From: an uncultured Chloroflexia bacterium
GTDB taxonomy: Bacteria > Chloroflexota > Limnocylindria > Limnocylindrales > CSP1-4
Assembly (NCBI GenBank): GCA_963713975.1
Contig: OY970218.1
Location: 3,328,001-3,392,000, forward strand
Reading direction: 5' to 3'
DNA: 64,000 bases
Below are positions 41,163 to 45,387 of this stretch, piece by piece. The stretch's first letter is position 1. The number at the start of each line of letters is the position of its first letter. Below the pieces are notes generated by a model. It had not been told where the DNA came from and did not search any database. It saw only the letters and a program-made list of their open reading frames with translations. The position numbers were made by a program, and so were the translations under genes.

Positions 41163-41873
41163 TCAGTCAGGCAGCGCGTCCGGATCCAGGTCGGCGAGGC
41201 TCGGGACGACTGCGTCGGCAAGCTCGCGCGCATTCCCGGCCGGCGGGACGCTGGGATTCGGCACCAGGACGACCGTCATTCCGGCGGCCTTGCCTGCCCG
41301 GACCCCGTTCACCGAATCCTCCACGACCAGGCAGCGACGCGGATCCACGCCCAGCCGCGACGCCGCGAGGAGGTACACATCGGGTGCCGGCTTGCCACGG
41401 GCCACCTCGTCCGAGGAGACGATGGCACCCATGGTGTCGTGGAGGCCGAGCGCATCGACGGCGGCGGCGATCACGTCCCGGTGCGACGACGAGGCGATCG
41501 CCACCGGCCAGCCCAGCGCGATCCGTCGGACCTGCGCCGGGGCGTCGTCGATCACGGGGGCTGGCCGCGCGGCATAGCAGCCGACCACGCCCGCCACGAT
41601 CGCGTGCTGGATCTCGTCCTCGGCCAGCTCGTCGAGGCCCAGGCGCTGCCGCATGGTCCGCGCCCATTCGCGCGAGTTGCCGCCCATCACGGAGGCCTGG
41701 TCGTCGTCCGTCCACGGTCGCCGGTGCTCCCTGGCGAAGGTGATGCGCACCTCGTTCCACCACGGCTCGCTGTCGACCAGCACGCCGTCCATGTCGAACA
41801 GCACGGCATCGAAGCGACGATGGCCCATGTGACCTCCGGGGAACCGGCCAGCTTCCGTGACCGGGTGGGACAC
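41163..41873 (-). CDS. HAD-family phosphatase
   Basis: FDMDGVLVDSE, ASSS, GKPAPD, VEDS..G. Confidence 0.92.
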   Translation of the reverse strand: MSHPVTEAGRFPGGHMGHRRFDAVLFDMDGVLVDSEPWWNEVRITFAREHRRPWTDDDQASVMGGNSREWARTMRQRLGLDELAEDEIQHAIVAGVVGCYAARPAPVIDDAPAQVRRIALGWPVAIASSSHRDVIAAAVDALGLHDTMGAIVSSDEVARGKPAPDVYLLAASRLGVDPRRCLVVEDSVNGVRAGKAAGMTVVLVPNPSVPPAGNARELADAVVPSLADLDPDALPD

Positions 41874-42023
41874 AGGCTAGCGAATCCGGACTGCCCGGGC
41901 CGCACGGGCCGCCTGGTGTGACTTCAGGGCGCCAGACGTGACACGAACGTTGAAGTCTCGCGTCAGTAGGGGTTTACCGAACGCACCACTCGGGACCTCT
42001 GTGCCATCCGACCTGACACTCGG

Positions 42024-43484
42024 ATGGCCGACAACCCCAGTGAGATGCCGAAGCCGAGGATTCAGACAGCCCGACGACCGGAGTGCCCGAAGCACCAGGG
42101 CGACGTGTGGCTCGACGGCTTCTACGGGCGCACCCAGCACCACGAGCGGCCGCGATTTCGTTGTGTGCCCCGGATAGATCCGAGAACGGGCAAGCGGCCG
42201 CCGCTCCACGCGAACGGCGAGAAGCCGCACCCATTCATCGAGCGGCTCGCCCGCCGGCATCGCACGTCGGGCGCGGGCACGCCGCACTTCTGCGAGGAGT
42301 GCGAGCACACGCTCGACCGGCACGAGGGGCCGCAGACGACACGGCGCCAGTCCTTCACCGTTCGGGAAGCCGCGCACGCCGTCGTCCAGGTCGCGCAGGG
42401 GATCAGCATGCGCCGCGCCAGCCGTGATGCGCGCGAGAGCGCCGACCGCCTCACGCCGACCTCGTGGGGGATGCTTCGCGCGAGTCCGCACGGGCAGCTT
42501 GCCTCGGACCAGCTCGCGATGTTCGGGACGATCGTCCGCGACGCCCTGATCCCGCCGACCTGGCCCGACAGTGTCGCGCTCGACGAGACCACCTTCGATG
42601 TGGTGGTAACGGACGTGGCCGACGACGGCGAGAAGACCTCGTTTCGTGGCGCGGTCAGCGTCCTCGGCGTGTATGGGTATCCGAACGGGCGCGGCTCGGG
42701 CCGCGCTGCGGCGCTCTCTCCGCGCGGCGGCGGGGACGCGGTGGAGTGGCTCGCGGTGCTCAAGTCACGGCCGAACGCGCCATCGTGGGTGGTGTGCGAC
42801 CAGGGCAAGGCGGTCGTGTCAGCCATCAAGACGGCGTGGCCGAAGGCGACGGTCTACGTCTGCGAGGCCCACCTGCGGATGCTCGCCGAGAATCGGCTCG
42901 CGGCCGACGGCTTCGACCGCAGGAGCGCGCTCTGGCGGGCGATGCCGGGAGCGATCGGCGACCGGGCGCGGTGGGAGCAGCTCGAGGCCGACATGCACGC
43001 CGCCGGTGCGAGGCAGACGCTCGCCTGGATGAGCTCGAACCGCCGGCTCATGGAACGCCAGTGGCGGGTCCGGGATCCGAACCGGCCGCTCTCGATCGGC
43101 GGGCTCGAGACCGTTCTCCGCGAGGTCGTCCATCGGCTTGGGGACCGCAGGCTCGTGTTCCGCAACCGAGCCCGGCTCGAGCTCGTGTTCGACCTCATGG
43201 GCCTCGAGATGGCCGGGCTTGCGACCGAGCGGAGCGTCCGCGACATCATCCGCCGCGACCTTCTACGCAACAAGGGCCGGCCTCGACTTCCGCGGCGCTC
43301 GCTCGACGATCACGGTTCCTCGTCGCTCTACGACGCCATCCGAGCCGTCAACGTCAGGCGGGGGCCGATACGAGCGGCGGCCCTTGTCAGACAGCACAAG
43401 CGCCGAGCTCGGGAGCGCGCCACTGGGCAGAAGGCACTTCAGCGACCCCCGCGACGACCGCCCATCGGGTCAACGCGCCCGTAG
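42024..43484 (+). CDS. Divergent DDE transposase (Mutator/IS256-like core, N-terminal Zn ribbon)
   Basis: CPKH..G.YG..RFRC, CEEC; VALDET, VVCDQGK..AIK.AWP.A....CEAH (CxxH), GGLE; lies within the TIRs. Confidence 0.8.
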   Translation: MADNPSEMPKPRIQTARRPECPKHQGDVWLDGFYGRTQHHERPRFRCVPRIDPRTGKRPPLHANGEKPHPFIERLARRHRTSGAGTPHFCEECEHTLDRHEGPQTTRRQSFTVREAAHAVVQVAQGISMRRASRDARESADRLTPTSWGMLRASPHGQLASDQLAMFGTIVRDALIPPTWPDSVALDETTFDVVVTDVADDGEKTSFRGAVSVLGVYGYPNGRGSGRAAALSPRGGGDAVEWLAVLKSRPNAPSWVVCDQGKAVVSAIKTAWPKATVYVCEAHLRMLAENRLAADGFDRRSALWRAMPGAIGDRARWEQLEADMHAAGARQTLAWMSSNRRLMERQWRVRDPNRPLSIGGLETVLREVVHRLGDRRLVFRNRARLELVFDLMGLEMAGLATERSVRDIIRRDLLRNKGRPRLPRRSLDDHGSSSLYDAIRAVNVRRGPIRAAALVRQHKRRARERATGQKALQRPPRRPPIGSTRP

Positions 43485-43539
43485 CGCCTTGCTGACCGCG
43501 CACACGAGAGGGACGGTGAAGCTCCGGGCGAGCCTCGCA

Positions 43540-44154
43540 CTACTTCGCGAGTAGGCGCCGACGCCAGGCAAGGCTTCCGGCGAGCAATCCTGCCAGGGCG
43601 ACGATCAGGCCGACGGGAAGCTCCTGCGCTGGTGGCTCCGGGAGCGTCGCCGTGTCGGGCGGCGTCAGCCGGAGCAGCCGGAAGACCTCGGCGACGGTGA
43701 TCCTCTCAACGCCGACGGAGTCCCACGGCGTGCCTCGGATCCAGGCGACCGTGTTGACCTGGATCGCCGGGCTGAAGTCGGTGGCGTCAAACGCGAGCGC
43801 GATCCGATCGCCTTCGCGAGCCTGGATGACGCCTGCGCAGGGCTGCGTCGGCAGATCGTTGATCTCCATCGTTCGCCCGGCGTCGCCGACGGGGGTGTAA
43901 CGGACTCGGAGCGTGAAGCGGCTCGACCATCCATTGTTAGTCGCAGCCCGGGCGAGGCCGCCGTCGCGCACGGCGATCACATCTCCGATGACCACGCGCT
44001 TGGCGGTGGCGAGGGCGTCTCGGAACGATGGGACGGGGCCATCACACTCGGCCGCAACAGGAAGCGGGCTGACCGCGATCGCGCCAAAGGCGACGGCACT
44101 TGCGAGGACGCCGGTGATGAAGCGGCGCCAAGGATCGGAGCGGTTCGTGTCCAA
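43540..44154 (-). CDS. Passenger: secreted protein with signal peptide, Cys pair and C-terminal membrane anchor
   Basis: Signal ..PVAA-EC, CDGPVPSFRDALATAKRVVIGDV, QPC; PDTATLP + TM + RRR tail; own -10 TAGCAT and SD. Confidence 0.75.
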   Translation of the reverse strand: MDTNRSDPWRRFITGVLASAVAFGAIAVSPLPVAAECDGPVPSFRDALATAKRVVIGDVIAVRDGGLARAATNNGWSSRFTLRVRYTPVGDAGRTMEINDLPTQPCAGVIQAREGDRIALAFDATDFSPAIQVNTVAWIRGTPWDSVGVERITVAEVFRLLRLTPPDTATLPEPPAQELPVGLIVALAGLLAGSLAWRRRLLAK

Positions 44155-44394
44155 GTGCGCCCCCTTCGTGTGGCTCGCCAGTGTCGTGGTGGACGCGTCA
44201 GCGGCTCGTCATGCTACGCGGCCGCTCGAAGCTGTCCCCACAGGGGACACCTGGAGGCACGAAGGTCCCGAGTGGTGCGTTCGGTAAACCCCTACTGACG
44301 CGAGACTTCAACGAACGTGTCACAGGACCTTTCCTCCGGCAGCGGGACGCGCGATGATGGCCGTCGGCCGCTGGGGCCGTGGAGGTCTGGTCAC

Positions 44395-45387
44395 GTGCAC
44401 GTCAATCGCGGGCTCATGGGATGGGGCGTCTTCTTCATCGTGCTGGGGGCCGTGCCCCTCGCGGTGCGATCCGGCACGATCGACGAGTCGGTCGTGCGAC
44501 GGGCGTGGGAGCTGTGGCCGCTGATCCTGATCGGGATCGGCCTGGGGCTTGTGCTGGCACGGACCCGGCTGGCCATCGTGGGCACCCTGGTCGTGGCGGT
44601 CACGTTTGGCCTGATGGGCGGCGCCCTGCTGGCCGGAGGTGTGGGGGTGGTGAGCGGGGTCGGGCCATGCGGCCTCGGGGGTGGCAGCGGCTCCGGCCAG
44701 TCGTTCGAGACGCGGACCGGCTCGTTCGCGGGCGACGCGACAGTCCGCCTCGAGATGGACTGCGGCGAGGTGGCCCTGAGCCCGGTCGATGGCGCGGACT
44801 GGACCGTGGCGGGAACGGCGGACGGGGGGCGCGCGCAGGACATGACCGCGACGGATCGCCGGCTCGTGGTGCGCACGCCGGATCACAACGGCGCCATCCT
44901 CGGCACCGCCCCAACCCGCTGGCAGGTGGCGCTGCCACGGGCGACGGCGGTCTCGGTGGAACTGACCCTCAACGCCGGCTCCGCGGACCTCGATCTCGCG
45001 GGCATGACCGTCCCGGCCGCGACCGTGGACGTGAACGCGGGCGACGCCAGGATCGACCTGCATGACGCCGCGGGGACCCAACGCCTCCAGGCATCGGCCA
45101 ACGCCGGCTCGCTGGTGATCCTCCTGCCGGTGCCAGTCGGAACCCTTGCTGGTTCGATCACCGTGAACGCCGGGTCCGCGAAGCTCTGCATTCCGGACGG
45201 CGTCGCGGTCCGGGTACGGAGCGAGGACAAGGCGCTCGGCTCGGTCGACGTCGGCGGCGGCGGCCTGATCCGCAACGGAGACACTTGGTCCACGTCGGGC
45301 TTCGCAGACGCGTCGTCGCGCATCGACGTCACGGTCAACGTGAACCTGGGCAGCATCTCCATCGACCCGGAGGATGGTTGTGACTGA
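44395..45387 (+). CDS. LiaF/DUF5668 TM domain plus DUF4097 (toastrack)-like beta-repeat protein
   Basis: WELWPLILIGIG; repeated (L/V)NAGS/D beta strands; SD GGAGG before GTG 44395. Confidence 0.75.
   Translation: MHVNRGLMGWGVFFIVLGAVPLAVRSGTIDESVVRRAWELWPLILIGIGLGLVLARTRLAIVGTLVVAVTFGLMGGALLAGGVGVVSGVGPCGLGGGSGSGQSFETRTGSFAGDATVRLEMDCGEVALSPVDGADWTVAGTADGGRAQDMTATDRRLVVRTPDHNGAILGTAPTRWQVALPRATAVSVELTLNAGSADLDLAGMTVPAATVDVNAGDARIDLHDAAGTQRLQASANAGSLVILLPVPVGTLAGSITVNAGSAKLCIPDGVAVRVRSEDKALGSVDVGGGGLIRNGDTWSTSGFADASSRIDVTVNVNLGSISIDPEDGCD

Follow-up and report, generated by a model that had tools for sequence, protein, structure and literature searches.

Low target specificity is the textbook view of IS256-type insertion sequences, and a typical one measures about 1.2–1.5 kb with a single transposase open reading frame (ORF). 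A preference for a two-fold symmetric target centred on the staggered cut is known from the DDE insertion sequences IS30, which has a 24-bp palindromic hot spot, and IS10/Tn10, with the IS10 target NGCTNAGCN; both belong to other transposase families and generate duplications of 2–3 bp and 9 bp, respectively. Here we analysed a 2360-bp element in a 64,000-nt stretch of DNA (the window) from an uncultured Chloroflexia bacterium of CSP1-4 (assembly GCA_963713975.1, contig OY970218.1, positions 3,328,001–3,392,000). We consider it likely that this element is a cargo-bearing insertion sequence of a deep, unannotated IS256/Mutator branch, with a clade-wide preference for a symmetric 18-bp target. 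Its ends, duplications, copy number, empty ancestral site and target consensus were observed directly.

ISCth4, a 1,503-bp element, has an IS256-family transposase for which structures are available; the element is reported to make an 8-bp target-site duplication (TSD), to favour A/T-rich targets, to contain TGTAAA near its ends and to transpose by copy-out/paste-in via a circle (PMC7780238). The window element shares with IS256 and ISCth4 an RNase-H-type DDE core, a CxxH motif past the second D, 8-bp duplications and terminal inverted repeats (TIRs). Both of its copies in this genome are flanked by 8 bp, within the 8–9 bp of IS256, and copy-out/paste-in is presumably common to IS256 and the window element. 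The conserved subterminal block GGGGTTTACC of its TIRs holds GTAAA on the other strand, a 5/6 match to the TGTAAA described for IS256 members (PMC7780238), although the motif is short. In contrast to IS256, the window TIRs are 48–55 bp rather than about 30 bp, the target of the window clade is G+C-rich, sequence-specific and symmetric rather than loosely A/T-rich, and the compact single-ORF layout is replaced by a larger element with a second conserved ORF convergent with the first.

Mutator-like elements (MULEs) such as Muta1 also make 8–9 bp duplications, and the window transposase matches the Pfam MULE model (PF10551) weakly (E 0.008). However, MULEs are eukaryotic whereas the window element is bacterial, the match misses the model's cut-off (17 against 27.6 bits), and Muta1 reportedly lacks a target preference (PMC5225508). 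The Cys/His-rich N-terminus of the window protein recalls the zinc finger reported at the N-terminus of MULE transposases (PMC5225508). The eukaryotic Dada elements (Kojima and Jurka 2013, PMC3706591) encode C/DxxH DDE transposases with zinc fingers; according to that study, individual families target particular tRNA or snRNA genes, and copies often keep the target one-sided. The clade-specific targets and one-sided or mismatched flanks observed here among the window element and its relatives agree with that description. Dada elements differ in their 6–7 bp duplications, their lack of TIRs, their much larger proteins and their eukaryotic hosts (PMC3706591). The resemblance is best taken as an analogy of behaviour, not as membership.

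Ends of the element and its empty site

An earlier note on this DNA, made from the sequence alone, described a 2360-bp element with TG...CA ends, TIRs that are perfect over 48 bp and extend to 55 bp with two mismatches, and an 8-bp duplication. All of these were confirmed in the sequence (Table 1). The tips read TGAAG... at the start and ...CTTCA at the end, and both are adjoined by the direct repeat ACGAACGT, beyond which lie GTGAC on the left and GTCAC on the right. Excision of the element leaves GTGACACGAACGTGTCAC, with eight of nine palindromic pairs, in agreement with the restored palindrome that the note had pointed out.

A repeat finder reported these ends differently, as a single continuous 68-nt inverted repeat with 94% identity. 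Taken at face value, this would make the outer 13 bp part of an element with 68-bp TIRs spanning 41938–44323, having neither an 8-bp duplication nor a palindromic target. We regard this as extremely improbable. The repeat ACGAACGT matches at 8/8 positions as a direct repeat but at only 6/8 as an inverted one; a second copy in the same genome (G000:C1:2224413–2226772) shares these tips but lies between unrelated flanks with a separate 8-bp duplication, ACCGGCGC; and in relatives the GTGAC..ACGAAC..CAC stretch belongs to the host sequence retained at the empty site. The outer 13 nt are therefore host DNA, and the 68-nt call arises because the near-palindromic target lengthens the TIR.

The two copies differ by no substitution and by two 1-nt indels (+T at 42060 and −G at 43720). 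The duplication must therefore be very recent, in line with the recent activity that had been proposed, and the element is young and probably still mobile. Its empty site was also found. Eleven genus relatives were examined; in nine of them, the genes for the haloacid dehalogenase (HAD)-family phosphatase and the LiaF-like protein that flank the insertion are directly adjacent and element-free, and the intergenic region contains a single GTGAC..GAAC.. stretch with one copy of ACGAAC(C)T. The empty site was present in relatives, where the note had proposed to look for it, but not in palindromic form; the orthologous site is a direct TGACAC repeat. Six sequencing runs were found, each with 5–9% of the sampled words, and four of the six were assembled at 85% likeness. 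The read contigs obtained on the element were short (135–366 nt, some of them 99–100% alike) and showed no joints bearing on a circle junction or an empty allele.

A shared symmetric target

Related elements were taken from genomes and metagenomes and their ends were read. Their TIRs are homologous to those of the window element, with the consensus N-GAAGT(A/C)(A/T)CGCG...GGGGTTTACC; in an alignment with 16 TIRs of relatives, columns G5, T6, C9, G10, C11, G20–22 and T25 are invariant. The target set consisted of nine two-ended insertions with a duplication, seven of them from other genomes. The duplications are perfect 8-mers in eight of the nine, and match at 7/8 positions in the remaining one. 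Reading each flank toward the duplication gave 18 half-sites, in which position −5 was S in 17, −4 was T in 13, −3 was G in 14, −2 was A in 15 and −1 was S in 16, while the first duplicated base was R in 17 and the second was C in 16. The resulting consensus is symmetric over 18 bp, 5'-STGAS/RCNNNNGY/STCAS-3', in which the slashes mark the 8-bp staggered cut. The seven foreign sites alone yielded the same string (S13 T10 G10 A12 S12, then R13 C12, of 14).

The nine sites score 11–14 of 14 against this consensus, while for the background, 28,376 18-mers drawn from the regions flanking these loci, the mean is 5.7 and a fraction of 7e-5 scores at least 12. Eleven of the 18 half-sites contain an exact TGA; at least one such half-site is present in eight of the nine sites and both in three. 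When all ends identified with the TIR profile were considered (46 distinct ends across all loci), TGA stood in register in 24, compared with 2.05% of background positions; the binomial P of 1e-28 overstates this result because some ends share one repeated target. We then scored 3.62 million positions of the pre-insertion genome, which was rebuilt by removing both copies. A single position scored 14/14, and it was the window site; 18 positions reached 13 and 543 reached 12, and the copy-2 site scored 12. The present genome contains no free full-consensus site, against 0–2 in three order-3 Markov simulations. In a quick maximum-likelihood tree of 26 transposases, the elements with this target form one clade of 10 rows (SH-aLRT 99). 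Collecting the flanks of related copies, which had been proposed as a check, bore out the suggested selectivity for a palindromic sequence. A deep branch of the IS256 superfamily appears to select a defined 18-bp symmetric site and to occupy the only perfect one in a 3.6-Mb genome. The window palindrome follows because the clade prefers a symmetric 18-base target, of which the window site is a perfect double half-site.

The palindromic flank might instead be a coincidence, the element inserting near-randomly like IS256 and favouring only A/T-rich 8-mers. The copy-2 site is a poor palindrome (4/9 pairs), IS256 and ISCth4 are described as having no more than an A/T-rich preference (PMC7780238), and Muta1, as mentioned above, as having no sequence preference (PMC5225508). 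Such a coincidence is very unlikely, since the same half-site is found at a fixed distance in elements of other genomes whose transposases show 46–76% identity, and the window site is the sole 14/14 position in the rebuilt genome. Moreover, 18-mers with at least 8/9 palindromic pairs make up 0.04% of the background 18-mers, and the duplicated 8-mers are G+C-rich, not A/T-rich.

The consensus is also a 7+4+7 inverted repeat, and this raises the question of whether the target is read as a structure, that is, as a hairpin or cruciform STGASRC-N4-GYSTCAS with a 7-bp stem and a 4-nt loop, in the manner of REP- or hairpin-targeting elements. The L035 site (TGAGAC-TTCG-GTCTCA) and the window site with its 8/9 pairs are consistent with this idea. 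However, six of the nine sites have only 2–4 of 9 complementary pairs and two more have 5/9; a base that deviates in one half has no compensating change in the opposite half (CTGAA against CTGAC in L031, CTGAG against GTGAG in L035); and one-sided sites are used. In addition, DDE copy-out/paste-in enzymes are reported to integrate into duplex DNA (PMC7780238). The scarcity of complementary pairs and the lack of compensation therefore indicate a preference for sequence rather than for a hairpin, and structural recognition seems quite unlikely.

The earlier note further proposed that the element targets operators. If promoter architecture or a DNA-binding protein of the host guided the element to regulatory palindromes, this would fit the observation that both copies in this genome are intergenic and just upstream of genes, and that the motif holding the copy-1 site is conserved genus-wide ahead of LiaF-like genes. 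In the relatives, however, the orthologous motif is unoccupied and is the direct TGACAC repeat described above, and the same half-site is also used in flanks of unrelated sequence and inside the ends of a different mobile element. A scan of 41800–44460 yielded no sigma-70 promoter (and no intrinsic terminator), and the plain sequence consensus accounts for all sites without a host factor. Operator targeting was therefore unsupported, and we consider host guidance unlikely. Since most sites are poor palindromes (2–6 of 9 pairs) and other copies lie in unrelated contexts, the preference is for the half-site sequence, not for palindromy or for the site of a host protein.

These considerations return us to a symmetric target read directly by the transposase. 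By homology with IS256 and ISCth4, the element would move by copy-out/paste-in: transfer of one strand would produce a figure-eight, from which a circle with its TIRs abutted would form, and a symmetric transposase dimer would integrate this circle by cutting at a distance of 8 bp. In the double-stranded target, each subunit would recognize one half-site, reading TGA at −4 to −2 together with RC at the first two duplicated bases. A single good half-site would be enough, and two would make the best site.

Several points weigh against this interpretation. The consensus was built on nine two-ended sites, and several further ends represent one repeated target and are not independent. TGA is out of register or absent at 22 of the 46 ends, including eight of CTTAT/CTTCT type; in several relatives the 8-mers at the two ends do not match; and the register of the element tip shifts by one base. 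The curated IS256 and Mutator models fall short of their cut-offs (12.3 against 150 bits and 11.6 against 21 bits). The indels of copy 2 frameshift both of its ORFs, the transposase just past its likely start and the cargo gene as well, and these frameshifts are either real or assembly errors. Neither a transposition intermediate nor a polymorphic empty allele was observed, so both the mobility of the element and its copy-out/paste-in route are deduced from homology. Finally, that a symmetric dimer reads the target is something we infer.

Some related loci (given by their L numbers) deserve separate mention. Ten of them (L032, L033, L039, L040, L042, L049, L052, L055, L073 and L119) have a common recurrent target, ..TTGTGGCCTGCTGAG-N8-ATAAGCATCAGCCGGC. 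In L032 it follows an IS1595-like transposase ORF (23–979) and a lipoprotein ORF, and in L033 it is present on both sides of the element in inverted orientation. This target, ..CTGCTGAG-N8-ATAAGCATCAGCCGGC, resembles one end of a different mobile element, hit repeatedly by insertions. Good TIRs with mismatched 8-mers at the two ends, and with a half-site kept in each flank, were observed in L049, L040, L042, L044, L120 and L121; the set includes two short derivatives, of 969 bp in G398 and 623 bp in G009. The mismatched 8-mers could have arisen by recombination between copies or by one-ended events. A long-branch relative, L089 (G089:C21, element 989–2850), is inserted in ATGTGA-CTATTGAG-TCACAT; its target, GTGAC-N6-GTCAC, has the half-sites of the window element spaced two bases closer. 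A reading of L009/L035 with TGAGAC tips and no clear TSD was ruled out by alignment with relatives, which places the tip at N-GGGGTAACG and the TSD at ACTTCGGT. At L075 (G358), no TIR pair was found within the DNA examined.

The transposase and its sister clades

The transposase contains the DDE core residues D187, D259 and E362, and C280-x2-H283 (C280-E-A-H283) lies about 20 residues past the second D. This is the position of the C/DxxH motif, which two studies describe as a signature (PMC3706591, PMC5225508). The N-terminal region is rich in Cys and His (C21, H24, C47, H69, C90 and C93). In an alignment of 57 relatives, D187 and D259 as well as C47, H69, C90 and C93 are invariant, E362 and H283 are nearly invariant, and M8 is nearly invariant in the clade, supporting its use as the start.

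The curated profiles barely recognized this protein. Besides the MULE model mentioned above, Pfam Transposase_mut (PF00872; E 0.13, 11.6 bits against a cut-off of 21), NCBIfam IS256 (NF033543; E 0.06, 12.3 bits against 150) and NCBIfam IS1249 (NF033544; E 1e-4, 21.5 bits against 300) all remained below their cut-offs. Single-protein scans of the 57 relatives gave matches to the IS256 model in 33 (best 1.3e-10) and to the MULE model in 27 at E ≤0.01 (best 1.2e-6). We also gathered five genuine IS256 transposases from related genomes with NF033543, which scored above cut-off in ten of the 41 related genomes searched and nowhere in this one. Comparison with these five by hhalign gave a probability of 98.3% (E 1.2e-14) and placed D187, D259 and E362 on the invariant IS256 residues D178, D246 and E353, and C280xxH283 on C267-x2-H270. 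Identity to the IS256 transposases is about 17% over the core, and the N-terminal 120 residues or so cannot be aligned to them. The family profile matches PDB 6xg8, annotated as a 'Mutator family transposase', at E 5.3e-7, while the N-terminal 125 aa gave no match among PDB sequences at E 10.

The kinship with IS256 and Mutator-like transposases that the earlier note had proposed from the 8-bp TSD was borne out by the hhalign result together with the 8-bp duplications of both copies. Its term 'new family' holds insofar as the protein is unannotated and scores below all curated cut-offs; at the level of the superfamily it goes too far, given the IS256/Mutator-like catalytic core. These comparisons place the transposase within the IS256/Mutator (C/DxxH DDE) superfamily, as a distant member outside the IS256 family of the curated models.

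Its branch is deep and unannotated, and occurs in Chloroflexota genomes of the Limnocylindria type and in metagenomes. Among 5.8 billion clustered proteins, 51 close homologues were found, all of them nameless or 'hypothetical' and without a Pfam domain; the insertion sequence content of Chloroflexota is therefore probably under-counted. A search of 1.84 billion cluster representatives returned 617 relatives at E ≤0.001. The transposase had no match in protein mode in a plasmid collection of 72,556 records, neither it nor the cargo protein had a match in PHROGs, and literature searches, with supplementary files outside their scope, named no described element of this kind.

The tree of 26 transposases contains two further clades with a support of 100 each, and these seem to have exchanged the target of the window clade for another. 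In the first (L093, L082, L015, L012 and L078), TTGACA is found 6 nt beyond the duplication in 5/5 loci (one reading of L015 gives 5 nt). The duplication is 8–9 bp long, and the motif is one-sided and lies on either side relative to the transposase gene. We rejected the possibility that TTGACA is a real −35 box: a plausible −10 box at the right spacing is present in only one of the five loci (L082), and TTGACA is therefore treated as a sequence motif, not as a promoter. A paralogous 2765-bp element of this clade is located in the same genome as the window element, at about G000:C1:2212145–2214909 (L093, 1383–4147) and about 10 kb from copy 2. It has TIRs matching at 30/30 positions (CTTGTGCGTCAAGG...) and the TSD CCGCTGGC; its 664-aa transposase shares 31% identity with that of the window element.

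In the second clade (L061, L062, L071, L085 and L086 = L087), whose TIR is (A/C)CCCCTGTTGTATCTG, the element adjoins the 3' terminus of a tRNA gene or tRNA-like DNA at all five distinct loci (Ala, Gly, Arg and others). The last 7–9 nt of the tRNA are duplicated in four of the five, leaving the tRNA gene whole. To our knowledge, insertion at tRNA 3' ends with the gene kept whole is unusual for a bacterial DDE element. No common target motif was found for L077, L088, L057, L076 and L063.

Transposases of the sister clades are 600–750 aa long, and tandem C-terminal DUF4379 treble-clef zinc fingers exceed the Pfam cut-off in seven of the eight proteins tested; the window clade lacks DUF4379. The fingers were observed in L093, L082, L078, L012, L061, L062 and L085, in the C-terminal 100–150 residues after the DDE core, with E values of 1e-20 to 1e-30. 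They are candidate target-reading modules. A wider reading, which we hold tentatively and at somewhat less than an even chance, is that these elements constitute a large unnamed bacterial superfamily of IS256/MULE-like type, a counterpart of Dada, in which each clade has its own protein-encoded site (the 18-bp symmetric site, the last 8 nt of a tRNA, or TTGACA 6 nt off) and the DUF4379 domains of the two sister clades act as readers. If true, it would provide naturally modular, RNA-free, site-specific DDE integration, usually ferrying one gene for a secreted or membrane protein. The natural variants in targets and zinc-finger modules make target choice by copy-out/paste-in DDE transposases directly testable.

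Cargo gene and host surroundings

The element can be described as a 'transporter IS', a 2.36-kb insertion sequence plus one cargo gene for a conserved secreted protein. By eye, the cargo protein has a signal peptide and, at its C-terminus, a membrane anchor (PPDT...TM...RRR), in addition to a conserved domain. It has 105 homologues with 40–83% identity, in which C37 and C106 are invariant, and no match in Pfam or NCBIfam. Related elements measure 1.99–2.40 kb, mostly with a cargo ORF. An extra ORF beyond the transposase gene, usually convergent with it, was present in 17 of the 22 elements inspected, and most of these ORFs appear by eye to encode lipoproteins, secreted or membrane proteins. 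The cargos are unrelated between elements, except that the cargo of the window element is 30% identical to that of the 2765-bp paralogous element in the same genome. A slot for one such protein is near-universal among these elements. In L031, L032, L035, L038, L042, L047, L051, L078 and others, a single cargo ORF was observed downstream of the transposase gene, in which membrane segments or a signal peptide of the lipoprotein type can be recognized by eye.

Table 1. Coordinates of the element, its target and the flanking host genes in the window
Feature	Position	Strand	Remarks
Host HAD-family phosphatase gene	41163..41873	-	PF00702, 9e-32; divergent from the insertion
Left target half-site GTGAC	41938..41942		Host DNA outside the duplication; fits STGAS at −5 to −1
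Left 8-bp TSD ACGAACGT	41943..41950		One copy in the empty site of relatives
Complete element	41951..44310		First bases TGAAGTCTCGCG, last bases CGCGAGACTTCA
Left TIR (IRL)	41951..42005	+	48 nt perfect, 53/55 overall; tip T-GAAGTCTCGCG, conserved subterminal GGGGTTTACC
Transposase ORF	42024..43484	+	486 aa; likely start ATG 42045 (M8)
Cargo gene	43540..44154	-	204 aa; convergent with the transposase gene
Right TIR (IRR)	44256..44310	-	Pairs with IRL
Right 8-bp TSD ACGAACGT	44311..44318		Direct repeat of the left copy
Right target half-site GTCAC	44319..44323		Host DNA
Host LiaF-like membrane protein gene	44395..45387	+	PF18917, 4.7e-7; ORF open from 44317

The G+C content of the element is 0.697, compared with 0.708 for the genome. 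Rfam gave no match in the window at 41500–44800 (E 0.1) or in eight related loci, and the spacer between the convergent genes folds no better than shuffled sequences (z 0.39). The GTG at 44395 was assigned as the start of the LiaF-like gene by alignment with the ATG of relatives. The insertion lies about 77 nt upstream of this gene and splits a conserved motif, whose palindromic form is peculiar to this genome; an effect of the insertions on the expression of neighbouring genes is possible from their positions. The motif itself was defined by comparing window positions 41938–41950 plus 44311–44360 with the orthologous DNA in L095–L105. It is non-coding and genus-wide, reads GAACCTGACAC..GG.CCTGTTCG followed by GCGATGATGG, and is located about 40–80 nt upstream of the LiaF-like gene.

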